Source: Flavobacteriaceae bacterium
GTDB lineage: Bacteria > Bacteroidota > Bacteroidia > Flavobacteriales > Flavobacteriaceae
Length of the DNA stretch: 32,000 nt
Assembly (NCBI GenBank): GCA_965224465.1
Contig: OZ245049.1
Coordinates: forward strand, 4,440,001-4,472,000
Reading direction: 5' to 3'
Shown here in pieces: positions 10,886-31,885 of the stretch. Under the pieces are notes generated by a model. The model did not search any database and was not told the origin of the DNA. It worked only from the letters and a program-made list of their open reading frames with translations. Position numbers and translations under genes: made by a program. Numbering within the stretch: the first letter of the stretch is position 1; each line of letters begins with the position of its first letter.

Positions 10886-10895
10886 TTAAAATATT

Positions 10896-11510: not shown

Positions 11511-11525
11511 GGATTGTATTTGGTA

Positions 11526-14965: not shown

Positions 14966-16774
14966 ATGGCATTACAAAGCATCACTTCTATTTGGATAGG
15001 ATCAACAGAGATATCCTATTTTAAATCATTAGAATTACATCAAAATATAAAAGACCATCACCATCTAAAATTAGTTTGTCGCATGGATGTTTTAGAGGGT
15101 TTTGAAGAAGAACAAGCAAAGAGCAGCAAGGATTTTTTAGGGCAGGTTATCGGCTTAGAAATAAGCCCCTCTATAGGATTTGAAGGCGCCAAAGAACTCC
15201 TTTTTAAAGGGGTTGTAACGGGCGTGCAAAGCATAAAGGGCTTTGAGGCAGGTGATGGCGATGAAGTGATTATTAGCGCAAAGAGTCCTACTATTTTAGC
15301 TAGCGATGGCGCACATTTTACTTCGTACAACGATGTTTCTTTGTCGGGTATTATACACGATAATTTTCAGCTTTACGACACTTCAAAGCTATCTGTTTTG
15401 GTACGCTTACAAAACGATCCTACCATACATTATTCGGTACAGCACAACGAAAGTTCTTTTGCCTATGCAAGTAGGTTAGCGGCTATGCATGGAGAATGGA
15501 TGTACTACGATGGGATCCAATTGATCTTTGGAAAACCAGATCAAACAGAAGTTGCATTAACCTACGGATTTGATTTAAAAGAATACGAGTTAAAGCTAGA
15601 GCCACAATCTAGTAATTACACCTATTTTGCAAACGATTATTTAACAGACCAGGTATATGAGCAATCGGCAGCTAATGTAAATACAGGACTGCGAGGATAT
15701 GGCGATTTTGTATCAGGTAAATCCGCACATCTATTCCATAAGGAAACTAAAATTTGGCATAATTTACACAACAGTCCACAAACGCAACAACGCTTAGACA
15801 GGGCAACAGAAGTACAAATAAAAGCGATTGCTTTACAACAAGTAATTGTCCGTGTCACAAGCGACAATACAGGGGTAAAACTGGGAGGTATTGTAACGAT
15901 AGAAGGCAATAAATACAGGGTTGTAAAAATTACACATACCAATACAGAAACAGGCGAATACCTCAATAAATTTGAAGCCATTACCACAGATATAAATACA
16001 TATCCGTATACAGATATAAACGCATTTCCAAAAAGTGAAAGTCAAACGGCTGTAGTAAAATACAACGATGATCCCGATGGTTTAGGGCGTGTAAAAGTAC
16101 AGTTTGTTTGGCAAAAAATCACAGGAGAAATAAGTCCGTGGATACGAATGGTACAGCCACATGGGGGAGCAGATAAGGGCTTTTATTTTATTCCCGAAAT
16201 AAACGAAGAAGTATTGGTAGGTTTTGAAGGTGGGAATGCAGAGTATCCCTATGTCCTAGGAAGCCTCTACAATGGAAGTCAAGGTGCAGGTGCTTTTCAA
16301 TCAAAAAATAATGATATCAAAGCGATTAAAACTCGCGGAGGTCACCTAATAGAATTCAAAGACACCAATGGGGAAGAAACGATAACTATTTTAGATAAGA
16401 GTGGTAATAAAATAGTATTCGATGTTGCAAGTTCTAGCATCAATATATCAGCCCCGTCAAACATAACCCTTAGTGCAGATACGATACAGATTAAAGCAAA
16501 AAATGAAATTAAAATGTTTTCAGCCGAAAGCAGTATCGCCATAGAAGCAAAACAGGATATAGGGATGCATAGTAAGGATTCAAAATTACAATTAAGTGCT
16601 AAAGAAGATGTAGATATTCGTAGTAAAAATGCCAATTTAAAAATTAAAGCAAAGAATACGACACAAATTGTAGGTAATAAAACGGTTGACGTATTGGCGG
16701 GTAATGAATTAAAAATGCACGGTAAAAGTAGCAGTAAATTAACAGGAGGAAAAGTATTTATAAATAAAGGCTAG
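14966..16774 (+). CDS. vgrG: Type VI secretion spike protein VgrG (TssI), short Bacteroidota-type
   Basis: 602 aa. A gp27-like N-terminus is followed by a gp5 OB-fold signature, GRVKVQFVWQ...SPWIRMVQPHGGADKGFYFIPEINEEVLVGFEGGNAEYPYVLGSLYNG. The C-terminus is repetitive and beta-helix-like. Confidence 0.9.
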   Translation: MALQSITSIWIGSTEISYFKSLELHQNIKDHHHLKLVCRMDVLEGFEEEQAKSSKDFLGQVIGLEISPSIGFEGAKELLFKGVVTGVQSIKGFEAGDGDEVIISAKSPTILASDGAHFTSYNDVSLSGIIHDNFQLYDTSKLSVLVRLQNDPTIHYSVQHNESSFAYASRLAAMHGEWMYYDGIQLIFGKPDQTEVALTYGFDLKEYELKLEPQSSNYTYFANDYLTDQVYEQSAANVNTGLRGYGDFVSGKSAHLFHKETKIWHNLHNSPQTQQRLDRATEVQIKAIALQQVIVRVTSDNTGVKLGGIVTIEGNKYRVVKITHTNTETGEYLNKFEAITTDINTYPYTDINAFPKSESQTAVVKYNDDPDGLGRVKVQFVWQKITGEISPWIRMVQPHGGADKGFYFIPEINEEVLVGFEGGNAEYPYVLGSLYNGSQGAGAFQSKNNDIKAIKTRGGHLIEFKDTNGEETITILDKSGNKIVFDVASSSINISAPSNITLSADTIQIKAKNEIKMFSAESSIAIEAKQDIGMHSKDSKLQLSAKEDVDIRSKNANLKIKAKNTTQIVGNKTVDVLAGNELKMHGKSSSKLTGGKVFINKG

Positions 16775-16781
16775 TATTCGT

Positions 16782-17633
16782 ATGAGAACTTTAGAACTCG
16801 AAACATATATTATAGATAAAAAAGTGTACAAATATGTATCTAAGTCTATAGTAGCAACAGAAAAAATGATGATGAAAAACTCATCAGAAGCTATTGTGAA
16901 AAAAAAGTACATTAAGAAGAATTTTCATAATACAGGTGCTATTTTTAGAATTGACACCCTGTCTGAAACCCAAGGAAAAGAGAGTGCCACGGGTAAATTA
17001 AGTGCCGATTTAAATAGCTTAATGCATCATATAAGTGTAGGAACTACCGCAACAGGAGAACTGCAAACAATTTTCAACATGGATCAAGTGATCGATACAT
17101 GGGATGCTCTTAAAAAGCGATGGAAAAAAGAGGCCCCTAGGAAAAACAGAAAACAGGTACAAAAAACGATAGATGCAGTAGAAGAAAATTTAGAAAACGG
17201 TAGTTTTGTTAAAGACATCGCTAGCCAAGGCATGCTGCATTTTTTACTGAACGGTTTGTATACAAATTACGGCAAGGATAATTGTATCGTGATCGCAAGA
17301 GATTTGAATAAATTTTTAGTAACACAACCATTGCCTTTAAATATTACCTATAAAATTGTAGCGTATGATAGGCTAAGCAAAGCCATGATAATTGAAGGCG
17401 AAGGGGAAGTTGCAGAAGAACGCCTTAACAAAAAAGAATTAACCCATTTTATACGATCGTTAAAAGATCAAATAAATTTAAAAGTGGATCTTCAAGTTGT
17501 TTATAAAGAGCGTTTTGAATTTGATGGAAGCCATTGGTTAACAAGAGCAAGACAGAAAGTAAAAGTAACAATCCCGGGGTTTTACATGGCAGAAACGGAT
17601 CAAAAAATAGAAGAATTGAACGATGAGCAATAA
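16782..17633 (+). CDS. Hypothetical protein between vgrG and the PAAR-like effector (candidate adaptor/chaperone)
   Basis: 283-aa ORF that starts 8 nt after the vgrG stop and overlaps the effector start by 11 nt (ATGAGCAATAA). I recognise no family. Any function is inferred from position only. Confidence 0.5.
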   Translation: MRTLELETYIIDKKVYKYVSKSIVATEKMMMKNSSEAIVKKKYIKKNFHNTGAIFRIDTLSETQGKESATGKLSADLNSLMHHISVGTTATGELQTIFNMDQVIDTWDALKKRWKKEAPRKNRKQVQKTIDAVEENLENGSFVKDIASQGMLHFLLNGLYTNYGKDNCIVIARDLNKFLVTQPLPLNITYKIVAYDRLSKAMIIEGEGEVAEERLNKKELTHFIRSLKDQINLKVDLQVVYKERFEFDGSHWLTRARQKVKVTIPGFYMAETDQKIEELNDEQ

Positions 17634-18696
17634 AAAATACGTACCGCAAGGCGTGTATTTAGCTTGCGATAAAGGAACTGTACCAACCGAATTTAAAATA
17701 ACGAATAATAATAATGTTTTTTTGTTTGATGAGCCCGTTGCCAATACGGGAGATATGATCCCCAATGTTAATATACAACCCTTTGGAGCCTGTAGCGTAA
17801 AATATGGAAACCCTTGCGTACCTGTGCCAACTGTTTGGCAAGGTTTTGAAGATGGTATATTTATTGGTAACTTTAACCCATTATTAGAAGACTCCGTGAT
17901 GCAATGTGGTGTAGGCGGAAAAATAGAAATACATTACTCGCTAGAAGATGCCCAAGCAGCATGTGGCGATGATGGAATGAGTTTCTGGGAAATAGTAGCT
18001 GCCACGGTATTGGTAGTAGCAGCAGTCGCATTAATTGTGATTACAGGAGGAGCTGTTATAGCGGCAGTAACTGCTGTAAGTGCTGCGACAGGTGCATTGG
18101 CAACTACAATAGCTGTAGGTGTTGTGGCATTAGAAGGGTTTGGTTTGTATTGTGAAGTAAAAGCATTATACGACTATACCGAAGACGGAGACGAAGAAGC
18201 ATTGTTTAAAGGTGTAGCCTTAGGTTTTTTGTTTTTAGGAGCAGGGAAAGTTGTTGAGAAAGGGTTTAGGGCACTTAAAAACAGTAAAGCCATTGTCGAA
18301 GTAACAGAACAGGTTACTAAGAAAATAAGTAAAAGGCTACAGTTTTTAGGAAGAACACCTGGGAAATCCTCTAAAACAGGCAGAGAAGTTTTTGAAAGAA
18401 TGTTAAACGGAAAACCTCCTACTGCAAGAGTTAAAAGAATAGGAAAAAAAGAAATAAAAGAATTTTGGGATTATGATAATCAAAAATGGAGAAATATAAA
18501 AGAAGCAGATATGGGGCATATTGAGGATGCCGTTTCGTATTGGAATAACACAGGAAGATACCTAGGTGCAAAATCTAAAGAGGTACGTAAATGGATGTTG
18601 GACTCAGATAATTATGTTTATGAGTATTTTAGAACGAATAGATCAAAAGGCGCAATATTAGGAAAAACAACAACTTATTTACCTCCAATTAATTAA
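17623..18696 (+). CDS. T6SS polymorphic effector: DUF4280/PAAR-like domain + multi-TM segment + C-terminal GH-E-like HNH/EndoVII nuclease toxin (CT type A)
   Basis: The N-terminal ~105 aa fit the DUF4280 pattern (YVPQGVYLACDKG, PFGAC, NPCVPVPTVW, MQCGVGGKIEI). An Ala/Val/Gly-rich hydrophobic run follows (FWEIVAATVLVVAAVALIVITGGAVIAAVTAVSAATGALATTIAVGVVAL), then the junction helix ALFKGVALGFLFLGAGKVVEKG. The C-terminal ~145 aa carry DMGHIED...NYVYEYFRTNRSKG, as in the GH-E family. Confidence 0.8.
   Translation: MSNKKYVPQGVYLACDKGTVPTEFKITNNNNVFLFDEPVANTGDMIPNVNIQPFGACSVKYGNPCVPVPTVWQGFEDGIFIGNFNPLLEDSVMQCGVGGKIEIHYSLEDAQAACGDDGMSFWEIVAATVLVVAAVALIVITGGAVIAAVTAVSAATGALATTIAVGVVALEGFGLYCEVKALYDYTEDGDEEALFKGVALGFLFLGAGKVVEKGFRALKNSKAIVEVTEQVTKKISKRLQFLGRTPGKSSKTGREVFERMLNGKPPTARVKRIGKKEIKEFWDYDNQKWRNIKEADMGHIEDAVSYWNNTGRYLGAKSKEVRKWMLDSDNYVYEYFRTNRSKGAILGKTTTYLPPIN
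18154..18264 (+). repeat. R0: recombination-homology segment inside the expressed effector gene
   Basis: 18190..18264 (GACGAAGAAGCATTGTTTAAAGGTGTAGCCTTAGGTTTTTTGTTTTTAGGAGCAGGGAAAGTTGTTGAGAAAGG) recurs essentially unchanged in R1 to R8. Weaker in-frame homology extends back to about 18154. Confidence 0.85.
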
Positions 18697-18713
18697 AATA
18701 AAAAATTTTTAAT

Positions 18714-19160
18714 ATGAAAGAATTCAGTAATGAAATAGAAAATAAAATCGATAATTTTTTAAGTGAATCTTCTGAATATTACGAGAAAGGAAATATTATA
18801 AAATCGGGTAATTACCTTGTAAAGGCATATAAGATAATACCTCAGCCTAGAGAGAAATATAATGAAAGCTATAACTATTGTTCATATGTTTTAGATTATA
18901 TTTTAGATGAAGAATATGAGGTTAATAATGCTTTAAAGTGGTTACAAGAACTAGAACTGATAGCAAATTTTCAAAAAACATGGGAAGGAAGCTATGAGTT
19001 TTATGCAGCAAAAACATATTTTGTAATAGGACAATTTGAGAAGGCAATAGAATATTTTGATAAGTGTATTGAAATAGGAAAAGGGATGAGATATTTTGAA
19101 GATGAAGATCCTAAATACAAAGATTTTTATCTAAATCCTGAAAAATACACAAATGAATGA
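18714..19160 (+). CDS. Variable helical-repeat protein, candidate immunity/accessory (allele 1 of 3)
   Basis: 148 aa. Homologous but strongly diverged from 27401..27853 and 30855..31295, except for the shared C-terminus RYFE.E..KYKDFYLNPEKYTNE. Its stop overlaps the next start (ATGAATGA). Confidence 0.6.
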   Translation: MKEFSNEIENKIDNFLSESSEYYEKGNIIKSGNYLVKAYKIIPQPREKYNESYNYCSYVLDYILDEEYEVNNALKWLQELELIANFQKTWEGSYEFYAAKTYFVIGQFEKAIEYFDKCIEIGKGMRYFEDEDPKYKDFYLNPEKYTNE

Positions 19161-19611
19161 ATTAAATAACGGTCTTTATTTAACAGTAGAAGAACTTAAC
19201 GAAGAAGGCAATGACTTATTCGAAAAAGAGCAATTTTTAGATGCCTTAAAGAAATATGAACAAGCATTAAATTTACTTCCTATTCCAAAAACAAACTGGG
19301 AAGCAAGCACATGGCTTTATACGAGCATAGCAGATGTGTATTTTTCAATTAATGATTTAGAAATAGCCAAAAACAATTATTACAATGCTCTTAATTGCCC
19401 AGAAGGTATGGGCAACGCATATATTCATTTTAGTTTAGGTCAAGTTTTATTTCTACTAGGAGAGATTGATAAGTCTAGACAATCATTATTGCGTAGCTAT
19501 ATGTTAGAAGGGGAGGATATATTTAAAGATGAAGACCCAAAATTTAGAAAAAGTATTGAAAATTATTTAAAACCTCCGCCAAAAAAATCACGTTTTTTAT
19601 TAGATGATTAA
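19153..19611 (+). CDS. TPR-like protein, candidate immunity for CT type A; carries the KKSRFLLDD tail
   Basis: 152 aa with TPR-like helices (EEGNDLFEKEQFLDALKKYEQALNLLP; ADVYFSINDLEIAKNNYYNAL). Nearly identical copies lie at 27846..28304 and 31288..31746. Confidence 0.6.
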   Translation: MNELNNGLYLTVEELNEEGNDLFEKEQFLDALKKYEQALNLLPIPKTNWEASTWLYTSIADVYFSINDLEIAKNNYYNALNCPEGMGNAYIHFSLGQVLFLLGEIDKSRQSLLRSYMLEGEDIFKDEDPKFRKSIENYLKPPPKKSRFLLDD

Positions 19612-19750
19612 TTAAGGTAGTATAGTATTTTTGAAATACAGAAGTAAATACCCTTTATGATTATAGCCAAGATAGTGACGAAGAAGCATTGTTTAAAGGT
19701 GTAGCCTTAGGTTTTTTGTTTTTAGGAGCAGGGAAAGTTGTTGAGAAAGG
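19582..19750 (+). repeat. R1 inter-cassette direct repeat (~170 bp)
   Basis: Spans the last 10 codons of the upstream ORF (KKSRFLLDD*), the conserved spacer TTAATTAAGGTAGTATAGTATTTTTGAAATACAGAAGTAAATACCCTTTATGATTATAGCCAAGATAGT, and the 74-nt core shared with R0. Confidence 0.9.
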
Positions 19751-20243
19751 ACTTAAATCATTAAAATTTACAGATCAAGTTCTTGATGTTGCTAATGCGA
19801 CAAACAAACAAAAAGGTAATTTTGGAGAGATAAAAGCAGCTGCTAACCTGTCAAAAAATAAGAAGTTAAAAAGTGCAGGGTATGACCTGACAAGAATTGG
19901 TGATAAAGCCCCAACAGGATTTAATAATACCATTAAAAAAGGAATTGACGGTTTGTACGAAAACGCAACTCCACCACCTCAATTTGTTATCGATGAGGCA
20001 AAATATGGGACATCTAAGTTAAGTAAAACAGTTGATGGGAATAAACAAATGTCTGATGGATGGATAGAAGCTAATGATTATAAAAGGTTAACTGATCAAG
20101 TAGATGAAGATAAGGCTAGAGAGATCATTAGAGCGATGGAAAACGGAGAAGTAGAAAAAATATTATCTAACATAGATGAATCAGGAAATGTAGTTACAAA
20201 AAGTTTAGATGAATTAGGTAAAATAATAGGTGATTGGCCGTAA
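19689..20243 (+). CDS. Orphan toxin cassette O1: CT type B, PD-(D/E)xK restriction-endonuclease-fold nuclease-like (possibly PoNe-like)
   Basis: The frame is open from 19635 and the track start is a TTG. It begins with the junction helix FKGVALGFLFLGAGKVVEKG. Candidate catalytic pattern is GNFGE ... GIDGLYE ... VIDEAKYG (D...ExK). No N-terminal trafficking domain. Confidence 0.6.
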   Translation: MFKGVALGFLFLGAGKVVEKGLKSLKFTDQVLDVANATNKQKGNFGEIKAAANLSKNKKLKSAGYDLTRIGDKAPTGFNNTIKKGIDGLYENATPPPQFVIDEAKYGTSKLSKTVDGNKQMSDGWIEANDYKRLTDQVDEDKAREIIRAMENGEVEKILSNIDESGNVVTKSLDELGKIIGDWP

Positions 20244-20257
20244 AATTAAATATAATA

Positions 20258-21046
20258 ATGAATATTAGAGATAGATTAAACACTCAAGAAAGGTATCAAG
20301 AAATAATTGACAAAAAAACTCAATATATTAATGAAGATTTAATTAGAATTCAAGAAAGAAAAGAAGATGAAAAAAATAACATTCAACAATATCCAAAACC
20401 AAATATTAAGATTATTAAATCTATCTCAAACTCTTTAGTAGGGAAATATATAAATTTATTACAAGCAGAGTATTCTGTTGGTAGTGATTTTATTAAAATT
20501 AAAGAGATCTTTAGTCAGTTATTAGGTTCAATGGAAATTTCTTGGAATTTAAAATCAGTTGAAGATTTTAAGCATGGCTTTGATGAAGATCCGTATTACA
20601 CAACAGATAATTACCAGCAAATTTTGACCTTAGTAAGTTTGGGGGTTTTATTAGAGGTTGGTAATGCCGATTTTGATAAAATAATAAAAATACGTGATAA
20701 GGTAAAAAATTCAGATCAACTATTGGATTTTTTAATAAACTACCGTGTTAAAAGAGAATTTAAAAAGACTCTATTGAAATATAATAAATATACAAATATT
20801 CAGCAAATTTTAGATGTTCAAGATAAAACAGAAGTTATAAAATCTTTAAAAAAATATCTTTCAAAGCAATGGTTTAAAGATTTCGGAAAAATGGCAAATG
20901 CAGAAACTCATAAAAGCAAGTGGAATATTCATACAGGTTATTGGAGTTGGGAAGCAGGTGCAATAGCAAAAATCCTAAATTTAGATGATAGTAGTTTAAA
21001 AGATCAACAATACTACCCTTATGATATGGTACATTTTAAAGATTAA
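20258..21046 (+). CDS. Candidate immunity protein for CT type B (DUF1911/PoNi-like, tentative)
   Basis: I place the start at MNIRDRLNTQERYQE by homology with the start of 28961..29707; the track start at 20234 is a TTG. The C-terminal HKSKWNIHTGYWSWEAGAIAKILNLDDSSLKDQQYYPYDMV resembles the DUF1911 C-terminus as I recall it. Confidence 0.55.
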   Translation: MNIRDRLNTQERYQEIIDKKTQYINEDLIRIQERKEDEKNNIQQYPKPNIKIIKSISNSLVGKYINLLQAEYSVGSDFIKIKEIFSQLLGSMEISWNLKSVEDFKHGFDEDPYYTTDNYQQILTLVSLGVLLEVGNADFDKIIKIRDKVKNSDQLLDFLINYRVKREFKKTLLKYNKYTNIQQILDVQDKTEVIKSLKKYLSKQWFKDFGKMANAETHKSKWNIHTGYWSWEAGAIAKILNLDDSSLKDQQYYPYDMVHFKD

Positions 21047-21051
21047 TAATA

Positions 21052-21606
21052 ATGAGTTACATTTTAGAACTATCTTATTTATTAGTGAATAAGGATCAGA
21101 AAGATCAAAAAAACATTCAAAAAGAAGTAAAACTATCTGTCAATAAACCTAAAGAATACTTTTCCTTATTTGCAAGTGATTTAGCAGAAAGAGGTATTGA
21201 GAAGCCAATTGTTGAATTGCCTTGGTTTGCAATGATTAATGGATTGTATCGTGAGGGGTTTCTACAAGAATTAGATTGGAAATCTTATCCTGAAGATTTT
21301 GTAGAAGCGACTTTAGCGTTAATTAAATGTCATTCAAATTCTAAGCAAATAAAAAATCAACTCCTAGATTTAGAATTTTTAAATAATGATTTAGAAGTAG
21401 AAGAAGTTATTATAAAAATTAATAAGGTACTACAAGAATTCAATATTTTACTAATTATTATTGATATAGATAGTGATAGTTATCTTTTAAATAGGATCGA
21501 ATTTGATAAAAAAGAAAGAGTTTTAGAGTTAGTTTCCTTTTTAGGTTACGGTAAAATTAAGATATATCGTAACAAAAAGAAGAGCCGTTTTTTATTAGAC
21601 GAATAA
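21052..21606 (+). CDS. Hypothetical cassette-terminal protein (second putative immunity/accessory); KKSRFLLDE tail
   Basis: 184 aa. Differs at 2 residues from 29713..30267. No family recognised. Confidence 0.5.
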   Translation: MSYILELSYLLVNKDQKDQKNIQKEVKLSVNKPKEYFSLFASDLAERGIEKPIVELPWFAMINGLYREGFLQELDWKSYPEDFVEATLALIKCHSNSKQIKNQLLDLEFLNNDLEVEEVIIKINKVLQEFNILLIIIDIDSDSYLLNRIEFDKKERVLELVSFLGYGKIKIYRNKKKSRFLLDE

Positions 21607-21730
21607 CGGATTACAAGCAGTTCTTTGAAATACAGAAGTAAATACCCTTTATGATTTTAGTCAAGATAGTGACGAAGAAGCATTGTTTAAAGGTGTAGCC
21701 TTAGGTTTTTTGTTTTTAGGAGCAGGGAAG
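21574..21730 (+). repeat. R2 inter-cassette direct repeat (variant spacer)
   Basis: KKKSRFLLDE* tail, variant spacer CGGATTACAAGCAGTTCTTTGAAATACAGAAGTAAATACCCTTTATGATTTTAGTCAAGATAGT, then the core up to GGAGCAGGGAAG. Confidence 0.85.
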
Positions 21731-22162
21731 TTCTTGGAAAAAGGGGTTAGATCGTTTACCGCTATGAGAGCAGGCGATGAAATGGTAGAATTGGCAGACA
21801 AGGTAATAGATGTAGCTGATGATTTACCAATATTGAAATTTAGCAGGGAAAAAATGCCAAATATTGCTGATAATATTGATGAAGCTATAGAGGCTGGACA
21901 TCCTAGTACTTTAACACGGGAAGCTGATAAGTCTGCTATTAAAGCGAATAGGAAAGCGGCATTAAATGAAATAGATAAAGCAAAGAAAGGTAATTCATTA
22001 GATGAATATCCTTTTGCTTCATCAAAAGAAGGAGGTGTAGGGTCAAACGTAAAATCTGTGCCGAAAGGAGAACAAAATATTCAAGGAGGAACTATGTCTA
22101 GTTTCTATCAAAATAATAATATAGCGGATGGTGATAAATTCATTGTAGAAATAATAGATTAA
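21683..22162 (+). CDS. Orphan toxin cassette O2: CT type C, NucA/NucB-family DNase-like
   Basis: Starts (TTG) with the junction helix FKGVALGFLFLGAGK. Contains NSLDEYPFASSKEGG...EQNIQGG, matching the DEYPFAS..EGG...N.QGG signature of the NucA/NucB deoxyribonuclease family. Confidence 0.65.
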   Translation: MFKGVALGFLFLGAGKFLEKGVRSFTAMRAGDEMVELADKVIDVADDLPILKFSREKMPNIADNIDEAIEAGHPSTLTREADKSAIKANRKAALNEIDKAKKGNSLDEYPFASSKEGGVGSNVKSVPKGEQNIQGGTMSSFYQNNNIADGDKFIVEIID

Positions 22163-22165
22163 ATT

Positions 22166-22750
22166 ATGAAAGAAATATTTAATAATATAATTACTTGGTT
22201 ACAGAAAAACAATAGGGACACCATGCTTAATCGTTTGTTAGACGGTAGTAATGATAATATTTATCGTAAAATATTTAAAAAAACAACATTAGAAATTCCA
22301 AATGAACTAATAGAGTTATATAAAATTAGTTTAGGTGTTAATATAAATGAAGGAGATAAACTAAATAGATTTCATTTTTTTCCAGGATTTTATTTTATGG
22401 CTATTGAAGAATCTATTTTAGATTATAATATCTTTAAAAACGATAGTCGTTGGAACAAAAATTGGTTTCCAATTTTTGCCAATGGAGGAGGTGATTTTTA
22501 TTGTGTAGATTGCTCAGATAAAAATAAATCTCCAATAGTTGAATTTATGTTAGATTATGATGATGAAGTAGTTCATGATAGTATTTTAAATATGCTAAAA
22601 ACTATTGATCAATGTTATAAAGAGAAAGTATATTATGTTGATGATGAAAATTATTTAGAAATAGATGATTATAAAAAAGAAAATAGCATTCGAAAAAGAA
22701 TAAATGGATATGATATTGTTAAAAAGAGCCGTTTTTTATTAGATGATTAA
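22166..22750 (+). CDS. SMI1/KNR4 (SUKH-1) family immunity protein; KKSRFLLDD tail
   Basis: 194 aa with IPNELIELYKISLG and WFPIFANGGGDFYCVD, typical of SMI1/KNR4. Starts 3 nt after the toxin stop. Confidence 0.7.
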   Translation: MKEIFNNIITWLQKNNRDTMLNRLLDGSNDNIYRKIFKKTTLEIPNELIELYKISLGVNINEGDKLNRFHFFPGFYFMAIEESILDYNIFKNDSRWNKNWFPIFANGGGDFYCVDCSDKNKSPIVEFMLDYDDEVVHDSILNMLKTIDQCYKEKVYYVDDENYLEIDDYKKENSIRKRINGYDIVKKSRFLLDD

Positions 22751-22791: not shown

Positions 22792-22851
22792 TGGAGTGTC
22801 TACATTTGTTGTGACGGTTTTATTAAGCCTATAAATTTATATATTTGAATT

Positions 22852-23136
22852 ATGGGAAGAAAAAAGCATGATAATGAGTTCAAGGTAATGATAGTAGAAC
22901 TATTAAAGTCCGGAATGAAATCAAAACAGATTAGTACAGATTACGAGTTGGATGTAAGTATGATATCTCGCTGGAAGCGAGAATACGAGATTAAATCGGG
23001 TGACTTTTCTAAAAAGAAAGAGTTAACCAATGATGAAGTGGAGCTAAAGGCGTTAAAAAAGGAACTTCGTAACGTAACTATGGAGCGTGATATATTAAAA
23101 AAGGCGGTAGGCATCTTTTCCAAGAGCGACAGATAA
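22852..23136 (+). CDS. IS3-family transposase OrfA (HTH/leucine-zipper part)
   Basis: 94 aa. MGRKKHDNEFKVMIVELLKSG...ISRWKREY and the coiled-coil ELKALKKELRNVTMERDILKKA are typical of IS3 OrfA. Confidence 0.85.
   Translation: MGRKKHDNEFKVMIVELLKSGMKSKQISTDYELDVSMISRWKREYEIKSGDFSKKKELTNDEVELKALKKELRNVTMERDILKKAVGIFSKSDR
23097..23103 (+). promoter_or_regulatory. Programmed -1 ribosomal frameshift site A AAA AAG (orfA to orfB)
   Basis: The heptamer is in the X XXY YYZ phase of orfA (codons TTA AAA AAG). The -1 frame is open from 23103 into orfB (GGRHLFQERQIRYKFIFNNGVSFPVEKMCKSMRVS). Confidence 0.7.
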
Positions 23137-23183
23137 GGTATAAATTCATTTTTAATAATGGAGTATCCTTCCCTGTTGAAAAG

Positions 23184-24017
23184 ATGTGCAAATCCATGCG
23201 CGTTAGTGAAAATGCATATTATCACTGGGTAAACAATAACGGTTCCAGCGTACATAATACAGCTAAAGTAGACTTGATGAATAGGATTACCTATCATTTT
23301 ATCGAAAGTAAAGAGATCTATGGGAGTCATAGAATTCAAAAAGCACTGGAGCGAGAAGGAGTGTATTATTCCCGTTCTTACGTGGCGCTGTTGATGAAAG
23401 AGATGGGTCTGCGAAGTGTTCTGAAGAAGGCTTTTGTGGTAACTACAGACTCTAAACACGATTATCCTATTGCTGAAAATATATTAAACAGAGAGTTTAC
23501 CAGTTTGAAAACAGGAGATAAATGGGTGTCAGATATCACCTATATACGCGTAAATGATGATTGGAATTACTTAACGACGATAATTGATTTAGCTGACAGA
23601 AAAGTGGTAGGTTGGTCATTAAGTGAAGACATGACCACCCAAAACACCATTGTAAAAGCGTGGATTGCGGCTAGAAGAACAAGAGCTATTAATCCAGGGT
23701 TTATCTTTCATTCAGACAGAGGAGTGCAATACGCATCTAATAAAATGACTGCTATTTTAAATTTTAATCAGAAAATAACACAAAGCATGAGTAGAAAAGG
23801 TAATTGTTGGGATAATGCTGTTGCTGAGAGCTTTTTTAAATCCATAAAGTATGAGTGGCTCTATCGTTTCAAGTACATGTCATATCTGCAATTACACGAG
23901 TCGATAAATGAATATATCTCTTGGTACAATATCAAAAGATTACATTCAAGTTTAGGGTATTTATCACCGCTTGAAATGGAAATAAAACTAAAAAAGAAAA
24001 TTAAGAAAGTGGCTTAG
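23184..24017 (+). CDS. IS3-family transposase OrfB (DDE/rve integrase core), probably made as an OrfAB fusion
   Basis: WVSDITYI (first D), FHSDRGVQYAS (second D) and NCWDNAVAESFFKSIKYEW (E) form the DDE triad. The frame is open upstream to 23103. Confidence 0.85.
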   Translation: MCKSMRVSENAYYHWVNNNGSSVHNTAKVDLMNRITYHFIESKEIYGSHRIQKALEREGVYYSRSYVALLMKEMGLRSVLKKAFVVTTDSKHDYPIAENILNREFTSLKTGDKWVSDITYIRVNDDWNYLTTIIDLADRKVVGWSLSEDMTTQNTIVKAWIAARRTRAINPGFIFHSDRGVQYASNKMTAILNFNQKITQSMSRKGNCWDNAVAESFFKSIKYEWLYRFKYMSYLQLHESINEYISWYNIKRLHSSLGYLSPLEMEIKLKKKIKKVA

Positions 24018-24048
24018 TAAAATAGTCACATATTTATTAGGAACTCCA

Positions 24049-24149
24049 CCCTTTATGATTGTAGCCAAGATAGTGACGAAGAAGCATTGTTTAAAGGTGT
24101 AGCCTTAGGTTTTTTGTTTTTAGGAGCAGGGAAAGTTGTTGAGAAAGGG
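24049..24149 (+). repeat. R3 right half
   Basis: CCCTTTATGATTGTAGCCAAGATAGT followed by the 74-nt core up to GAGAAAGGG. Confidence 0.85.
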
Positions 24150-24527
24150 TTTAGGGCTTTTAGAGCTATGAGAGCAGGCGATGAAATGGTAGAATTGGCA
24201 GACAAGGTAATAGATGTAGCTGATAATTTACCAATATTGAAATTTAGCAGGAAAAAAATGCCAAATATTGCTGATAATATTGATGAAGCTATTGAGACTG
24301 GGCAACCAAAAGTATTAGCGAGAGAAACTGATAAATCTGCTATCAGTGCAAATAGAAGGAATGCTTTAAAAGGAGTAGACGATGCAATAGATGGTAACTC
24401 ATTAGACGAATATCCTTTTGCTTCGTCAAAAGAAGGAGGTGTAGGAGCAAACGTAAAATCTGTACCTGTTAAAGAACAAAATATACAAGGAGGTACTATG
24501 TCTAGTTTTTATAAAAAAATGGTATAA
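24087..24527 (+). CDS. Orphan toxin cassette O3: CT type C' (NucA/NucB-like variant), C-terminus truncated by a frameshift in an A7 tract
   Basis: Same architecture as O2, with NSLDEYPFASSKEGG...EQNIQGG retained. After SSFY the frame ends (KKMV*). The +1 frame continues NGIKEGDKFIVEIID* to 24565, matching the O2 C-terminus ..DGDKFIVEIID*. Confidence 0.6.
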   Translation: MFKGVALGFLFLGAGKVVEKGFRAFRAMRAGDEMVELADKVIDVADNLPILKFSRKKMPNIADNIDEAIETGQPKVLARETDKSAISANRRNALKGVDDAIDGNSLDEYPFASSKEGGVGANVKSVPVKEQNIQGGTMSSFYKKMV

Positions 24528-24568
24528 AAGAAGGAGATAAGTTTATCGTAGAAATAATAGATTAAATT

Positions 24569-25153
24569 ATGAAAGAAATATTTAATAATATAATTACTTG
24601 GTTACAGAATAATAACAGAGATATTATGCTTAGGAAATTACAAGGCGGTAGTAGATACGGTATTTATAATAAAATTTTAAAGGAAACTGAATTAGAAATT
24701 CCAAATGAATTGATAGAACTATATAAAATTAGCTTAGGAGTTGATATAAAAAAGGGAAACAAATTAGATGATTTTCACTTTTTTCCAGGGTTTTATTTTA
24801 TACCTATTGCTCGATCTATATTTTTTTATAATAACTACAAAGATGATAGTCGTTGGAACAAAAATTGGTTTCCAATTTTTGCCAATGGAGGAGGTGATTT
24901 TTATTGTGTAGATTGCTCAGATAAAAATAAATCTCCAATAGTTGAATTTATGTTAGATTATGATGATGAAGTAGTTCATGATAGTATTTTAAATATGCTA
25001 AAAACTATTGATCAATGTTATAAAGAGAAAGTGTATTATGTTGATGATGAAAATTATTTAGAAATAGATGATTATAAAAAGGAAAATAGTATTCGAAAAA
25101 GAATAAATGGATATGATATAGTTAAAAAGAGCCGTTTTTTATTAGATGATTAA
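24569..25153 (+). CDS. SMI1/KNR4 (SUKH-1) family immunity protein (variant); KKSRFLLDD tail
   Basis: 194 aa. The C-terminal ~100 aa are identical to 22166..22750, and the N-terminal ~95 aa have diverged. Confidence 0.7.
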   Translation: MKEIFNNIITWLQNNNRDIMLRKLQGGSRYGIYNKILKETELEIPNELIELYKISLGVDIKKGNKLDDFHFFPGFYFIPIARSIFFYNNYKDDSRWNKNWFPIFANGGGDFYCVDCSDKNKSPIVEFMLDYDDEVVHDSILNMLKTIDQCYKEKVYYVDDENYLEIDDYKKENSIRKRINGYDIVKKSRFLLDD

Positions 25154-25290
25154 TTAAGGTAGTATAGTATTTTTGAAATACAGAAGTAAATACCCTTTAT
25201 GATTATAGCCAAGATAGTGACGAAGAAGCATTGTTTAAAGGTGTAGCCTTAGGTTTTTTGTTTTTAGGAGCAGGGAAAGTTGTTGAGAAA
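25124..25290 (+). repeat. R4 inter-cassette direct repeat
   Basis: Same tail, spacer and core as R1. Confidence 0.9.
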
Positions 25291-25740
25291 GTAAGTGGTA
25301 AAATTATAAAATCTTTTACCAAAAGAGGAGATGAGATTATAGAAGCTAGTGCAAAAGGAATTGATGATGTAGTAGAACCTCTAGGTACATGTAGAGATGC
25401 TCAAGGGAAATTAAGAAATAAAGACGGTACTTTTGCTAAGGACTCAAATACTGTTAAATTTAATAGAAATACTTCTGAAAGAAAAAAAGCATTATTAAGA
25501 GATGCAAAAGACCCCAATAGTGGGTTATCTGATAGAGCTAGAAAACAAATTTTAGATTCAAATGGGGAAAATGTACCAAAAGGTCATGAAGTTTCTCATG
25601 AAATTCCATTATACACAGAAAAAACTGTTACTGGTAAAAAAGCTTTAGATAGAGCAAGTAATATGAAAACTCAGCAGAAAAACGTACATAGAAAAAGACA
25701 CAAAAAATGTGGAGACCAGTTTCATGATTTCCCATTCTAA
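25231..25740 (+). CDS. Orphan toxin cassette O4: CT type D, HNH/EndoVII (beta-beta-alpha-Me)-like nuclease domain (tentative)
   Basis: Starts (TTG) with FKGVALGFLFLGAGKVVEK. The C-terminal KGHEVSHEIPL...NMKTQQKNVHRKRHKKCGDQFH has His/Asn spacing compatible with an HNH-type active site. The subfamily is not resolved by eye. Confidence 0.45.
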   Translation: MFKGVALGFLFLGAGKVVEKVSGKIIKSFTKRGDEIIEASAKGIDDVVEPLGTCRDAQGKLRNKDGTFAKDSNTVKFNRNTSERKKALLRDAKDPNSGLSDRARKQILDSNGENVPKGHEVSHEIPLYTEKTVTGKKALDRASNMKTQQKNVHRKRHKKCGDQFHDFPF

Positions 25741-25753
25741 TAAAAATTAAATT

Positions 25754-26452
25754 ATGAATTTACAAAGTATTAAAGAAATGTATTTAAAAGTAATAAAATC
25801 GGATGATTTATCTTTTAAATTAGACTTCATTGATGAATTGATAAAAAACAATAATAATGAAATAATGAACTATCATTATGACTTATTAAAAGAGAAATCT
25901 GATAAGAAATTTTTTCAATATATTAGAAGTTCCTTTAAAAAAAGAGGAAGCGAAGCGGAATTATTTTTATTAAAAAAAATTCAAAAAGAAAAAGATTTGG
26001 ATTTAAAAGGTGAAGTTCTTCAAATTTTAGGAGGAATGAAATGTGAAGAGATAACACCAATAGCAATAGAACTTCTTTCCGAACCAGTTTTTAGTCTTCA
26101 ATACAAAGCCATAATTGTTTTAGGTTGGCTTGGTAAAAAAGAAGAAGTATTGATTCTTGATAAGGTAATGAATTCTAATAAAAATCAAGATTTGAGAGGA
26201 TACGCAGCTTCAGCTATGAGGCAAATATGGTATAACAATTTAAGATTAAACAAAAGTATTCTTAAATGTTATTATAATGCACTATTAGGTGATAATTCAT
26301 ATGTATTAGATAGCACAATCATAACTTGTACGCAAGATATTCTTAAAAAAAAATTTGGTATTAAGGAGTCTAATCATGGAGATATATCAGGAGATATCTC
26401 CATAGCAAAACCCAAAGCAATAATGGCACTTGAAAAATTTCTAAAAATATAA
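25754..26452 (+). CDS. HEAT/ARM-like repeat protein, candidate immunity for CT type D
   Basis: 232 aa with HEAT-like helical repeats (LQILGGMKCEEITPIAIELLSEP..LQYKAIIVLGWLGKKEEVLILDKVMNS..DLRGYAASAMRQI). Confidence 0.5.
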   Translation: MNLQSIKEMYLKVIKSDDLSFKLDFIDELIKNNNNEIMNYHYDLLKEKSDKKFFQYIRSSFKKRGSEAELFLLKKIQKEKDLDLKGEVLQILGGMKCEEITPIAIELLSEPVFSLQYKAIIVLGWLGKKEEVLILDKVMNSNKNQDLRGYAASAMRQIWYNNLRLNKSILKCYYNALLGDNSYVLDSTIITCTQDILKKKFGIKESNHGDISGDISIAKPKAIMALEKFLKI

Positions 26453-26454
26453 AT

Positions 26455-26829
26455 ATGATTGTTTTTTTATATGACTCAGAATTGGAGTATGAATTATTAG
26501 ATGAAGAATTACACCTAAATGAAGCCTTAACCGAGTTTTATGAATTATCTGAAATAGAAGGTTCATTTTTTGGTGTTAAAACCCTAGGTGAAGTAATACA
26601 ATTTTCTTGGGAAGATGTAGATAAATGGCTTATAGACTTACCTAATCCACCATCTTTTTTGAATTTCCAACGATATGCTAACTATGATGAATGTGTCGAG
26701 ACTATTAAAATAGTTTTTAATGGAGTTTCTCCAAAAGAAGTTAAGAATTTAACAAAAGTTAATATTAAGTCAGAAACTCTCGATGGTGTCCTTAAGAAAA
26801 AAAAATCACGTTTTTTATTAGATGATTAA
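26455..26829 (+). CDS. Hypothetical acidic cassette-terminal protein; KKSRFLLDD tail
   Basis: 124 aa, starting 2 nt after the upstream stop. No family recognised. Confidence 0.5.
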   Translation: MIVFLYDSELEYELLDEELHLNEALTEFYELSEIEGSFFGVKTLGEVIQFSWEDVDKWLIDLPNPPSFLNFQRYANYDECVETIKIVFNGVSPKEVKNLTKVNIKSETLDGVLKKKKSRFLLDD

Positions 26830-26969
26830 TTAAGGTAGTATAGTATTTTTGAAATACAGAAGTAAATACCCTTTATGATTATAGCCAAGATAGTGACGAA
26901 GAAGCATTGTTTAAAGGTGTAGCCTTAGGTTTTTTGTTTTTAGGAGCAGGGAAAGTTGTTGAGAAAGGG
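26800..26969 (+). repeat. R5 inter-cassette direct repeat
   Basis: Same tail, spacer and core as R1. Confidence 0.9.
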
Positions 26970-27401
26970 TTTAGGGCACTTAAAAACAGTAAAGCCATTG
27001 TCGAAGTAACAGAACAGGTTACTAAGAAAATAAGTAAAAGGCTACAGTTTTTAGGAAGAACACCTGGGAAATCCTCTAAAACAGGCAGAGAAGTTTTTGA
27101 AAGAATGTTAAACGGAAAACCTCCTACTGCAAGAGTTAAAAGAATAGGAAAAAAAGAAATAAAAGAATTTTGGGATTATGATAATCAAAAATGGAGAAAT
27201 ATAAAAGAAGCAGATATGGGGCATATTGAGGATGCCGTTTCGTATTGGAATAACACAGGAAGATACCTAGGTGCAAAATCTAAAGAGGTACGTAAATGGA
27301 TGTTGGATTCAGATAATTATGTTTATGAGTATTTTAGAACGAATAGATCAAAAGGCGCAATATTAGGAAAAACAACAACTTATTTACCTCCAATTAATTA
27401 A
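26907..27401 (+). CDS. Orphan toxin cassette O5: CT type A (GH-E-like), silent near-exact copy of the expressed toxin tip
   Basis: The protein is identical to residues ~194-357 of 17623..18696. By direct comparison of 18190..18696 with 26895..27401 I see one nucleotide difference, the synonymous GAC/GAT at 18601 versus 27306. Confidence 0.7.
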   Translation: MFKGVALGFLFLGAGKVVEKGFRALKNSKAIVEVTEQVTKKISKRLQFLGRTPGKSSKTGREVFERMLNGKPPTARVKRIGKKEIKEFWDYDNQKWRNIKEADMGHIEDAVSYWNNTGRYLGAKSKEVRKWMLDSDNYVYEYFRTNRSKGAILGKTTTYLPPIN

Positions 27402-27853
27402 TGAAAATAAAAATGGCAATTTTAGAAAAACACACACAAGATAAAATAGATAAATTATCTAATGAATCATACAAGCGTTATGAAGTTGGGGATAAGGAAA
27501 CTTCATATAGACTAATGGAAGAAGCGTGGGGAATGTATCCAAATCCAAAAGAGAATTGGAATGAGAGTTATAATACTGCTAAATACGCTTTAGATGATCT
27601 TTTAAAAAATGGTGAAATTGAAAAAGCAATGATTTGGTATACAAGAATGGTTAAAATTCATGAGAACCTTGGACTTTGGATAGGTTCATTTGAATATTAT
27701 TCAGGAAAAATATTCTTTGAAAAGAAGGATTTTAAAAAGTCCTTAGAATACTTTAATAAAATGTTTGAAATTGCTGGTCATAGATATTTTGAAGATGAAA
27801 ATTCAAAATACAAAGATTTTTATCTAAATCCTGAAAAATACACAAATGAATGA
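27401..27853 (+). CDS. Variable helical-repeat protein, candidate immunity/accessory (allele 2 of 3)
   Basis: 150 aa. The start overlaps the toxin stop (TAATG), and an alternative start lies at 27413 (MAILEK, compare 30855). Shares only the C-terminal block with the other two alleles. Confidence 0.55.
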   Translation: MKIKMAILEKHTQDKIDKLSNESYKRYEVGDKETSYRLMEEAWGMYPNPKENWNESYNTAKYALDDLLKNGEIEKAMIWYTRMVKIHENLGLWIGSFEYYSGKIFFEKKDFKKSLEYFNKMFEIAGHRYFEDENSKYKDFYLNPEKYTNE

Positions 27854-28304
27854 ATTAAATAACGGTCTTTATTTAACAGTAGAAGAACTTAGCGAAGAAG
27901 GCAATGACTTATTCGAAAAAGAGCAATTTTTAGATGCCTTAAAGAAATATGAACAAGCATTAAATTTACTTCCTATTCCAAAAATAAACTGGGAAGCAAG
28001 CACATGGCTTTATACGAGCATAGCAGATGTGTATTTTTCAATTAATGATTTAGAAATAGCCAAAAACAATTATTACAATGCTCTTAATTGCCCAGAAGGT
28101 ATGGGCAACGCATATATTCATTTTAGTTTAGGTCAAGTTTTATTTCTACTAGGAGAGATTGATAAGTCTAGACAATCATTATTGCGTAGCTATATGTTAG
28201 AAGGGGAGGATATATTTAAAGATGAAGACCCAAAATTCAGAAAAAGTATTGAAAATTATTTAAAACCTCCGTCAAAAAAATCTCGTTTTTTATTAGATGA
28301 TTAA
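27846..28304 (+). CDS. TPR-like protein, candidate immunity for CT type A; KKSRFLLDD tail
   Basis: 152 aa, with 3 residue differences from 19153..19611. Confidence 0.6.
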   Translation: MNELNNGLYLTVEELSEEGNDLFEKEQFLDALKKYEQALNLLPIPKINWEASTWLYTSIADVYFSINDLEIAKNNYYNALNCPEGMGNAYIHFSLGQVLFLLGEIDKSRQSLLRSYMLEGEDIFKDEDPKFRKSIENYLKPPSKKSRFLLDD

Positions 28305-28364
28305 TTAAGGTAGTATAGTTCTTTGAAATACAGAAGTAAATACCCTTTATGATTATAGCCAAGA
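28275..28364 (+). repeat. R6 left part (tail + spacer); homology breaks at 28364
   Basis: Matches the other repeats up to ..GATTATAGCCAAGA, then diverges. Confidence 0.85.
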
Positions 28365-28375
28365 CGGCAACTAAT

Positions 28376-28418
28376 AAATACATTCCCAAGTGACGGTTTA
28401 TAAATAGAATTATTTTTT
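28376..28418. repeat. Small dispersed repeat, family X, replacing the 5' part of the cassette homology core
   Basis: AAATACATTCCCAAGTGACGGTTTATAAATAGAATTATTTT matches 11470..11510. The canonical core resumes at about 28413 (TTTTTTGTTTTTAGGAGCAGGGAAAGTTGTTGAGAAAGG) and runs to 28451. Confidence 0.65.
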
Positions 28419-28947
28419 GTTTTTAGGAGCAGGGAAAGTTGTTGAGAAAGGACTTAAATCATTAAAATTTACAGATGAAGTTCTAGATGTTGCTAATGCG
28501 ACAAACAAACAAAAAGGTAATTTTGGAGAGATAAAAGCAGCTGCTAACCTGTCAAAAAATAAGAAGTTAAAAAGTGCAGGGTATGACCTGACAAGAATTG
28601 GTGATAAAGCCCCGACAGGATTTAATAATACCATTAAAAAAGGAATTGACGGTTTGTACGAAAACGCAACTCCACCACCCAAGTTTGTAATAGATGAAGC
28701 TAAGTTTAATACCGCTCAACTTGGTAAAACCAAAGATGGCAAGCAGATGAGTGATGGATGGTTGTTAGGAGAAAAAACAGGAAATAATAGGCTAATAGAT
28801 CAAGTAGGTGATGTAAAAGCTGATGAAATAATGGAAGCACTAGAAAATGGAGAAGTGGAAAAAATTATAAGCCGTGTTGACGTAAATGGGAATGTAGTTA
28901 GTAAACAATTAAATAGTGCAGGTAATATTATAGGTAATTGGCCATAA
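28417..28947 (+). CDS. Orphan toxin cassette O6: CT type B' (PD-(D/E)xK-like variant) with a degraded 5' junction
   Basis: Starts at TTG inside the junction helix (FLGAGKVVEKG). It is near-identical to O1 through ..VIDEAK, after which the C-terminal half diverges. Confidence 0.55.
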   Translation: MFLGAGKVVEKGLKSLKFTDEVLDVANATNKQKGNFGEIKAAANLSKNKKLKSAGYDLTRIGDKAPTGFNNTIKKGIDGLYENATPPPKFVIDEAKFNTAQLGKTKDGKQMSDGWLLGEKTGNNRLIDQVGDVKADEIMEALENGEVEKIISRVDVNGNVVSKQLNSAGNIIGNWP

Positions 28948-28960
28948 CTAATATATAAAT

Positions 28961-29707: not shown

Positions 29708-29712
29708 TAATA

Positions 29713-30267: not shown

Positions 30268-30405
30268 CGGATTACAAGCAGTTCTTTGAAATACAGAAGT
30301 AAATACCCTTTATGATTATAGCCAAGATAGTGACGAAGAAGCATTGTTTAAAGGTGTAGCCTTAGGTTTTTTGTTTTTAGGAGCTGGGAAAGTTGTTGAG
30401 AAAGG
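30235..30405 (+). repeat. R7 inter-cassette direct repeat (R2-type spacer)
   Basis: KKKSRFLLDE* tail, spacer CGGATTACAAGCAGTTCTTTGAAATACAG.., and the core with one substitution (GGAGCTGGG). Confidence 0.85.
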
Positions 30406-30838: not shown

Positions 30839-30854
30839 TAAGAAAAAACAAAAA

Positions 30855-31746: not shown

Positions 31747-31885
31747 TTAAGGTAGTATAGTATTTTTGAAATACAGAAGTAAATACCCTTTATGATTATA
31801 GCCAAGATAGTGACGAAGAAGCATTGTTTAAAGGTGTAGCCTTAGGTTTTTTGTTTTTAGGAGCAGGGAAAGTTGTTGAGAAAGG
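31717..31885 (+). repeat. R8 inter-cassette direct repeat
   Basis: Same tail, spacer and core as R1. Confidence 0.9.

Follow-up and report, generated by a model that had tools for sequence, protein, structure and literature searches.

Mosaic toxin/immunity units and alternative toxin tips at a probable DUF4280 PAAR-like effector locus of a Flavobacteriaceae bacterium

Neisseria MafB toxins join a small constant N-terminal domain to polymorphic C-terminal tips and are accompanied by downstream mafB-CT/mafI cassettes. Acquired interbacterial defence (AID) islands of Bacteroidales contain immunity genes but no toxin fragments, and recombinases are associated with them. In polymorphic toxins generally, tips are replaced by recombination with standalone toxin-immunity cassettes (Zhang et al. 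2012, PMC3482391), and the catalogue of such systems includes SUKH immunity proteins as well as GH-E and NucA/NucB toxins (PMC3482391). In Salmonella Rhs loci, duplication is followed by recombination between main and orphan genes and allows the old immunity gene to be kept (PMC3967940), while C-terminal displacement arrays of Rhs genes occur in bee-gut bacteria (PMC8125069). In contact-dependent inhibition (CDI) systems, module homology runs from VENN to VENN, and in Y. pestis Microtus an orphan became joined to cdiA through a 3.5-kb deletion (PMC3150448). Here we describe a locus of this kind in a 32,000-nt stretch of a Flavobacteriaceae bacterium (assembly GCA_965224465.1, contig OZ245049.1, positions 4,440,001 to 4,472,000 of the forward strand), hereafter the window, in which a gene for a small DUF4280 PAAR-like toxin is followed by 5'-truncated toxin tip and immunity cassettes. 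This anatomy is that of a polymorphic toxin gene with orphan cassettes, a standard organisation. It resembles that of MafB, from which the N-terminal domain, the export route and the phylum differ, and it shares with AID and other orphan immunity arrays the presence in one genome of several immunity alleles against one toxin family; unlike in AID islands, toxin fragments are kept and adjoin the expression site.

The closest parallels are the Rhs main/orphan loci (S. Typhimurium STM0291/STM0292; Snodgrassella, Gilliamella), in which, as here, a full-length toxin gene associated with type VI secretion (T6SS) precedes start-less tip and immunity fragments that have homology to the main gene, and in which recombination fuses an orphan tip to the secretion-competent body (PMC3967940, PMC8125069). 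In contrast to Rhs, no Rhs/YD shell is involved here: the tip is carried by a small DUF4280 PAAR-like protein that has a hydrophobic linker. The homologous stretch is the handle, of 74 nt (~110 nt if the diverged extension is counted), instead of 522 bp, and the expressed tip type is itself present three times. Orphan cdiA-CT/cdiI modules of E. coli EC93 and EC869 and of Yersinia likewise lack initiation signals and stand in arrays interrupted by insertion sequences (PMC3150448), and the Y. pestis Microtus deletion fusion has an analogue in one of the conspecific strains considered below (L009). The motif that demarcates the tip is VENN in CDI and DEEALFKGVALGFLFLGAGK here; CDI uses type V two-partner secretion, whereas T6SS is presumed here, where there is no CdiB, and the cassettes here often have two downstream genes. 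From polymorphic toxins in general the locus does not differ in principle: it is a DUF4280-carried instance in marine Flavobacteriaceae, and our literature search found no paper on this DUF4280 handle or array. The kind of system is thus already well known, and the locus is an ordinary though clear case of toxin-tip swapping by recombination; it extends the orphan-cassette model of Rhs, CDI and MafB to small DUF4280 PAAR-like effectors of marine Flavobacteriaceae and leaves the current understanding of how such systems work unchanged.

We consider it likely that homologous recombination at handle and junction repeats moves and homogenises the cassettes, and that a 506/507-nt match between the tip of the full-length gene and an orphan is one conserved block of a two-cassette (A-B) unit that is present three times, with one copy at the expression site. 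The elements on which this reading depends are listed here, where CT stands for a C-terminal toxin tip and O1 to O8 are the orphan cassettes in order:
17623..18696, + strand: full-length toxin gene ("expression site"), 357 amino acids (aa), Pfam DUF4280 and GH-E
18190..18263, + strand: universal 74-nt handle, encoding DEEALFKGVALGFLFLGAGKVVEKG, the homology common to the main gene and the orphan cassettes
18154..18189, + strand: 36-nt diverged 5' extension of the handle, from an alignment of 12 handles
18190..21668, + strand: unit U1, comprising CT-A, immA1, immA2, CT-B, PoNi and DUF6630
26895..30330, + strand: unit U2, comprising O5 and O6
30332..32000, + strand: unit U3, comprising O7 and O8 and running off the window
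18430..18501, + strand: 72-nt hypervariable patch in CT-A, in which the main gene equals O5 and 30 of 72 positions differ from O7 (30572-30643)

Eight 5'-truncated tip/immunity cassettes lie downstream of the toxin gene, and the array continues past the window end. Orphan handles start at 19677, 21671, 24075, 25219, 26895, 28369 (5' half replaced), 30332 and 31812, and their extension reads YDYSQDSDEE where the main gene has YDYTEDGDEE. Orphans look promoterless and have an in-frame TGA just upstream and no ATG, the only candidate start being a TTG inside the handle, and this gene anatomy suggests an expressed main gene with silent orphans. An earlier reading made from the sequence alone had described an expression-site gene with an array of spare cassettes; its anatomy holds, while the expressed or silent status follows from gene structure.

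The repeat is the 3.45-kb A+B unit rather than the tip. When U1 is aligned with U2 (18050-21700 against 26755-30360), near-identical and strongly diverged blocks alternate: CT-A differs at 1 of 507 positions (0.2%), the N-terminal part of immA1 at 185 of 413 columns (44.8%), the end of immA1 with immA2 and the junction at 10 of 567 (1.8%), the N-terminal part of CT-B at 3 of 250 (1.2%), the C-terminal part of CT-B with the N-terminal part of PoNi at 444 of 1000 (44.4%), and the end of PoNi with DUF6630 and the junction at 4 of 750 (0.5%). Near-identity therefore does not stop with the toxin; it resumes at about 19106/27799, some 400 nt past the CT-A block, and runs to about 21668/30330 with one more hypervariable gap. 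Because blocks at 0.2-1.8% stand beside patches at ~45%, uniform divergence after duplication is excluded. In addition, the nearest relative switches along the unit: CT-A groups U1 with U2 (34 sites to 1), 19107-19199 groups U2 with U3 (4 sites), and 19292-19865 groups U1 with U3 (8 point sites, plus a 45-nt element found only in U2). A permutation runs test on the 18 informative sites, with the hypervariable patches left out, gives p=1.2e-4 for this mosaic pattern. Since the mosaic sites change partners in this way, the unit copies recombine within the genome, and gene conversion and/or repeated crossing-over among units is well supported.

We propose that homologous recombination, presumably of the RecA type, would move cassettes by acting at the 74-nt handle and at the equally conserved junction before the next cassette, and that repeated gene conversion and/or unequal crossing-over would keep the unit copies ~99-100% alike. 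Short "specificity" patches (the immA1 N-terminus, the 72-nt toxin loop, and the CT-B C-terminus with the PoNi N-terminus) would remain ~45% divergent, and an identical toxin beside different immA1 alleles would mean that the toxin was homogenised rather than that immA1 was replaced.

A possible, if tentative, alternative is that the array grew outward when the main handle and a distal one underwent unequal sister-chromatid crossing-over, so that the expressed A-B segment was duplicated in tandem and O5-O8 are copies of the expression site whose patches were replaced later. Such an origin agrees with homology that spans the whole 3.45-kb unit and not just the CT, with the tandem position of U2 and U3, and with the published Rhs model, in which duplication of the toxin locus precedes recombination (PMC3967940). 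It would require several extra patch replacements at ~45% divergence, however, and the mosaic pattern (12|3, 23|1, 13|2) needs further conversions anyway. Outward duplication is not exclusive of homologous recombination at the handle and junction repeats, and is a plausible component of it. The same consideration corrects the sequence-only reading, which had held that simple reciprocal crossover between direct repeats would delete the cassettes in between: unequal sister-chromatid exchange, which it passed over, duplicates them.

The 507-nt block was the starting point of that earlier reading, and its description is accurate. Direct alignment (18100-18800 against 26805-27505) gives 506 of 507 identical positions for 18190-18696 and 26895-27401; the one difference is synonymous (18603 C, 27308 T), at the third base of the Asp codon 18601-18603 (GAC/GAT) in the frame of the open reading frame (ORF) 17623-18696. 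Identity ends at the toxin stop, which is TAA in both copies (18694-18696, 27399-27401) and is followed by TAAAATAAAAAATTTTT versus TAATGAAAATAAAAATGG. At the other end, the last upstream mismatch is 18189 (A versus T), and 18154-18189 are only ~60-70% alike. Chance was rejected as the cause of the identity given the extent of the match, and pure selective constraint was rejected because synonymous sites are identical as well. The third A-type copy, O7 (30332-30838), is near-identical except for the 72-nt patch and diverges from both others right after the stop.

The further claim, that so sharp a block of ~500 nt is the mark of a single duplicative transfer that took place recently between O5 and the expression site, is not supported, as both edges are generic. 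The left edge (18190) is the start of the handle common to every cassette, and the right edge (the stop codon) is the start of a hypervariable immunity segment that differs among all three A copies, including O7. Because the edges are generic and near-identity resumes downstream over the 3.45-kb unit, the block is not an isolated conversion tract; nor is it significantly cleaner than the other conserved blocks (1/507 against 17/1567, or 1.1%; Fisher p=0.09). The 506/507 identity records recent intragenomic recombination, neither a delimited 507-nt transfer nor a direction, and the reverse transfer, which the sequence-only reading had also allowed, fits the data equally.

Only the 72-nt patch, where the main gene and O5 agree against O7, can inform on conversion specific to the CT. 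U1 and U2 have the same toxin patch despite different immA1 alleles: the U1 immA1 protein is 44% identical to the O5 allele and 32% to the O7 allele, and at the DNA level the variable part of immA1 is about as distant between any two of the three copies. Should immA1 be the partner that sets specificity, then a replacement has affected one of the two toxins or one immA1. This shared patch beside unlike immA1 is the sole feature that specifically favours conversion at the level of the CT, and it gives no direction. A narrower version of events, which we regard as unlikely, builds on it: a single recent non-reciprocal conversion of the CT only, from handle to stop, would have passed from O5 to the expression site, overwriting an older A-type tip and leaving its immA1 behind. 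The pairing of an A-type tip with a U2-like immA1 in another species (locus L007) hints that U2 is the matched pair and thereby lends this version some weight, as do the U1 and U2 toxins, identical throughout the patch, beside immA1 proteins so unlike. The generic edges (a handle start common to all cassettes, an immA1 start common to O7) and the similarity test stand against it, and immA1 replacement or the reverse direction fits equally well, with only the 72-nt patch informative.

Returning to the units as recombining copies, the hypervariable patches mean that several immunity alleles stand side by side (three of immA1, two of PoNi). Alleles of one toxin/immunity family can therefore coexist, and short specificity patches resist homogenisation of the rest of the unit, which makes the locus useful for mapping the determinants of toxin-immunity recognition. 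The C-terminal half of CT-B and the N-terminal two-thirds of PoNi vary jointly as one contiguous ~1-kb block (19964-20918 against 28665-29579, 44% different), which would look like a swapped toxin-immunity specificity module.

Two conspecific strains, L009 and L010, carry other tips fused at the handle. Both are long-read metagenome contigs (ENA ERZ25073217), found via the conserved 283-aa protein encoded just upstream of the toxin gene and via close VgrG variants. L009 is collinear with window positions 7078-18280 at 98.0% identity and then continues directly into CT-B1 and PoNi (window 19641-21007), and its main gene is an intact 377-aa fusion of DUF4280 body, handle and CT-B. L010 is collinear with 5013-17360 at 98.9% identity; its main gene, intact and encoding 352 aa, is fused to CT-C' (99.5% identity with orphan O3) and is followed by the C' SUKH gene, cassette B1 (99.45% identical) and another insertion sequence. 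Three strains thus have three tips on one carrier gene: A (GH-E-like) in the window, B1 (PoNe-associated type) in L009 and C' (NucA/NucB type) in L010. All three expressed tip types also occur as orphans in the window, cassette B1 lies at or directly after the expression site in 3/3 strains, and breakpoints between strains fall within the handle or its extension. Three conspecific strains with three tips on one carrier and junctions at the 74-nt handle make an exceptionally clear natural example. The handle extension of the L010 main gene has orphan-type polymorphisms, whereas the window and L009 keep the main type; the handle region therefore travels with the tip, and the exchange point lay further upstream in the L010 lineage. 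In L010 a side observation concerns the 283-aa gene, which is split by an IS1595-family transposase (11817-13767); if the 283-aa protein is an adaptor, the L010 effector may not be loaded. A search of genome and metagenome contigs for further conspecific strains returned only other species, at most 84-90% identical.

From the aligned strains, tip exchange at the expression site is real, and the data fit more than one direction and mechanism. This part of the sequence-only reading, cassette exchange at the expression site, stands by virtue of the alternative tips; the delimited 507-nt transfer does not. That reading would have been weakened had all related strains carried the same arrangement and had divergence been even across the block and its flanks; the strain arrangements differ, and divergence between U1 and U2 is strongly non-uniform by block. 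It had also set aside deletion-type events, but the L009 arrangement resembles one, a simple loss of the A cassette from handle to handle.

The strain comparison fits intragenomic switching and inter-strain recombination alike. One further account holds that the system is actively switching, with duplicative non-reciprocal transfers between handle-flanked cassettes that repeatedly re-arm the PAAR-like carrier, immunity alleles that accumulate, and a functional KKSRFLLDD tail on the last protein of each cassette; the tail might serve as a tag, for docking or turnover, that links terminal immunity proteins to the toxin's constant part or its adaptor, and would not be a by-product of the junction repeat. 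We find this distinctly unlikely. In programmed gene-conversion systems of the pilE/pilS and vlsE type, transfer from silent copies is frequent, unidirectional and non-reciprocal and uses a dedicated cis element; here the mosaic paralogues show that conversion occurred, though neither how often nor which way. Another account holds that there was no exchange within the genome, and that other strains were the source both of the cassettes and of the expressed tip, each brought in by transformation or other horizontal transfer followed by homologous recombination, with near-identity reflecting a recent common source. Here B1 and C' are relevant, being 99.5% identical between strains with flanks that differ by 0.7-1.4%, as is the sharing of tip families across phyla, but independent import does not account for the presence in one genome of three A-B units, related in tandem, along which the conserved blocks change their nearest relative, and we judge it improbable. 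An artefact (repeat collapse or polishing) or pure constraint through purifying selection on the toxin is very improbable: although assembly and polishing easily go wrong on repeats of 0.5-3.5 kb that are 99-100% identical, unique hypervariable patches anchor the units, the record is a 5.24-Mb contig, independent contigs confirm B1, C' and the handle fusions, and synonymous sites are identical too, unlike under selection on protein.

Several observations weigh against homologous recombination at the handle and junction repeats as we have framed it. First, the immA1 allele of U1 has no match among the other copies in the window, which means that U1 is not a simple copy of U2 or U3, and a better donor or recipient copy may lie past position 32000 or at other VgrG loci (P0125, P0126). 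Second, the differences between strains could stem from inter-strain homologous recombination instead of intragenomic switching, and the comparison comprises three strains only, two of them metagenome long-read contigs with indels. Third, when a long-read assembly is polished with short reads, near-identical repeats can be made artificially alike. Finally, the expression, secretion, toxicity and immunity roles assigned here are predictions from sequence.

The layout of the locus was taken from an ORF listing with Pfam and NCBIfam scans. Two genes precede the toxin gene:
14966..16774, + strand: VgrG spike protein gene, 602 aa, Pfam Phage_base_V (E=2.7e-23), Phage_GPD and DUF2345
16782..17633, + strand: conserved 283-aa gene in the interval between vgrG and the toxin gene

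The VgrG protein also matches NCBIfam vgr_GE and VgrG-related, both below the cut-off. The 283-aa protein has no Pfam or NCBIfam match, and its position suggests a putative adaptor or chaperone; a gene for 283-284 aa holds the equivalent position in L004, L007 and L009. vgrG lies two genes upstream of the DUF4280 toxin gene on the same strand, an arrangement equalled in L004, L009 and L010. The toxin itself consists of the DUF4280 PAAR-like domain (aa 9-104), a hydrophobic region (~aa 118-178), the handle and tip CT-A1. Its N-terminus matches DUF4280 (PF14107) with E=5.3e-19 and 69.3 bits against a cut-off of 26.3, and this family is described as PAAR-like in Francisella and Flavobacterium johnsoniae (cited in PMC13402684). 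The N-terminal ~200 aa are 57-83% identical to proteins with other tips (PF14040, PF14410, PF15604, PF15640, HINT). CT-A1 matches Pfam GH-E below the cut-off (18.8 bits, E=0.0025, cut-off 25), shares 53% identity over 125 aa with the C-terminus of a Pseudomonas protein named GH-E family nuclease by NCBI, and contains a readable MGHIED motif; a PDB sequence search with CT-A returned nothing meaningful. CT-A1 is accordingly best described as a putative GH-E-like nuclease tip with a weak family match.

No T6SS core genes are present within the 32-kb window, whose first 14 kb contain genes for a beta-galactosidase, for TonB-dependent receptors and for a Fur-family protein. The locus is probably an accessory type VI secretion effector locus, and its product would be delivered by the T6SS. 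In the 1-kb non-coding region 5' of vgrG there is a related pair of ~100-nt sequences (13964-14062 and ~14385-14480, ~78% alike), with no Rfam match. The two further VgrG paralogues, P0125 and P0126 (588 aa), lie on the same 5.24-Mb contig and fall in the same 90%-identity cluster as the window VgrG; the genome may hold further effector loci able to exchange cassettes with this one.

Candidate immunity genes (PoNi, SUKH/SMI1, TPR, HEAT, DUF6630) lie directly 3' of each tip, and the toxin and immunity roles of the tips and the downstream proteins are putative. The remaining features of the array are:
18714..19160, + strand: immA1, TPR-like putative immunity gene, 148 aa, Pfam TPR; the N-terminal part (18697-19105) is hypervariable
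19153..19611, + strand: immA2, TPR protein, 152 aa, C-terminus KKSRFLLDD; near-identical across the three units
19689..20243, + strand: orphan O1, CT-B1, 184 aa from the handle, no family match for the tip; then the PoNi immunity gene
20234..21046, + strand: immB1, PoNi-family immunity gene, Pfam PoNi_N and PoNi_C
21052..21606, + strand: immB2, DUF6630 protein, C-terminus KKSRFLLDE, Pfam DUF6630 (E=1.1e-24)
21683..22750, + strand: orphan O2, with CT-C, a NucA/NucB DNase (21683-22162; Pfam DNase_NucA_NucB, E=1.1e-20), and a SUKH/SMI1 gene (22166-22750; SMI1_KNR4)
22792..24048, + strand: IS3-family insertion sequence, 1257 bp, with orfA (22852-23136) and orfB (23184-24017), Pfam HTH_Tnp_1 and rve
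24087..25153, + strand: orphan O3, with CT-C' of NucA/NucB type (24087-24527) and a SUKH gene (24569-25153)
25231..26829, + strand: orphan O4, with CT-D (169 aa, no family match), a HEAT-repeat protein (25754-26452) and a 124-aa protein with C-terminus KKSRFLLDD (26455-26829)
+ strand: orphan O5 (in U2), with CT-A2 (26895-27401), immA1' (27401-27853) and immA2' (27846-28304)
+ strand: orphan O6 (in U2), with CT-B2 (28417-28947), PoNi (28961-29707) and DUF6630 (29713-30267)
28372..28416, + strand: 45-nt element in place of the 5' half of the O6 handle, with similar copies at 8370-8414 and 11466-11510 (69-89% alike)
+ strand: orphan O7 (in U3), with CT-A3 (30344-30838), immA1'' (30855-31295) and immA2'' (31288-31746)
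+ strand: orphan O8 (in U3), with CT-B3 from 31824, running past the window end

The IS3 element has ends TGGAGT...ACTCCA and a CCC target duplication; it is inserted in the O3 handle extension and parts the NucA/NucB-type cassettes C and C' (78-88% alike). In O3, the CT-C' stretch 24505-24527 has A7 at ~24512 where the expressed copy in L010 has A8; the resulting frameshift removes the last 13 aa and reflects either a silent copy that is decaying or a sequencing error at the homopolymer in one assembly. The two upstream copies of the 45-nt element each sit between a convergent gene pair, and the element is possibly a small repeat or akin to a terminator. For the array, site-specific mechanisms, integron-like or other, were considered and rejected, no integrase and no structured site having been found. 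Rfam gave no match in the window, RNAalifold on seven junctions gave no conserved hairpin and no covarying structure, and a scan for sigma-70 promoters and terminators, which is unsuited to Bacteroidota promoters, found no more sites than in shuffled sequence. The IS3 transposase genes were the only recombinase ORFs found, and Pfam annotation of the L010 genes homologous to the upstream genes of the window gave no integrase; that annotation does not reach the 669-aa ORF at 120-2129 of the window, which was not scanned.

The last protein of every cassette ends in K-K-S-R-F-L-L-D-D/E, although its carriers (TPR, DUF6630, SUKH and the 124-aa protein) are otherwise unrelated. In the window the tail is encoded at 19585-19611, 21580-21606, 22724-22750, 25127-25153, 26803-26829, 28278-28304, 30241-30267 and 31720-31746, and elsewhere it occurs at ~5816 and ~8986 in L004 and at ~11596, ~12033 and ~14483 in L005. 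Its codons vary synonymously (Ser TCA/TCT/AGC/AGT, Arg CGT/CGA/AGG, Leu TTA/TTG). That the tail is kept across three genera despite these synonymous changes suggests selection on the peptide and not just on a DNA repeat. The single-cassette locus L007 is without the tail peptide, and a homologue search with the DUF6630 immunity protein, made to gauge the generality of the tail, returned only the query itself.

For the A-type tip the databases contain only one close locus (L007/L008). DUF4280 toxins from several genera of Flavobacteriaceae conserve the handle motif YDY.QDGDEEALFK.VALGFLFLGAGK, and two to four handles per locus are present in L001, L003, L004 (Aequorivita) and L005 (Gangjinia). 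The orphans of the Aequorivita locus (4635-5318, 7671-8498) have an ATG start, keep the hydrophobic region and share ~470 nt of homology with the main gene, and these fragments could be translated on their own. In the same locus, a truncated second vgrG lies after the array.

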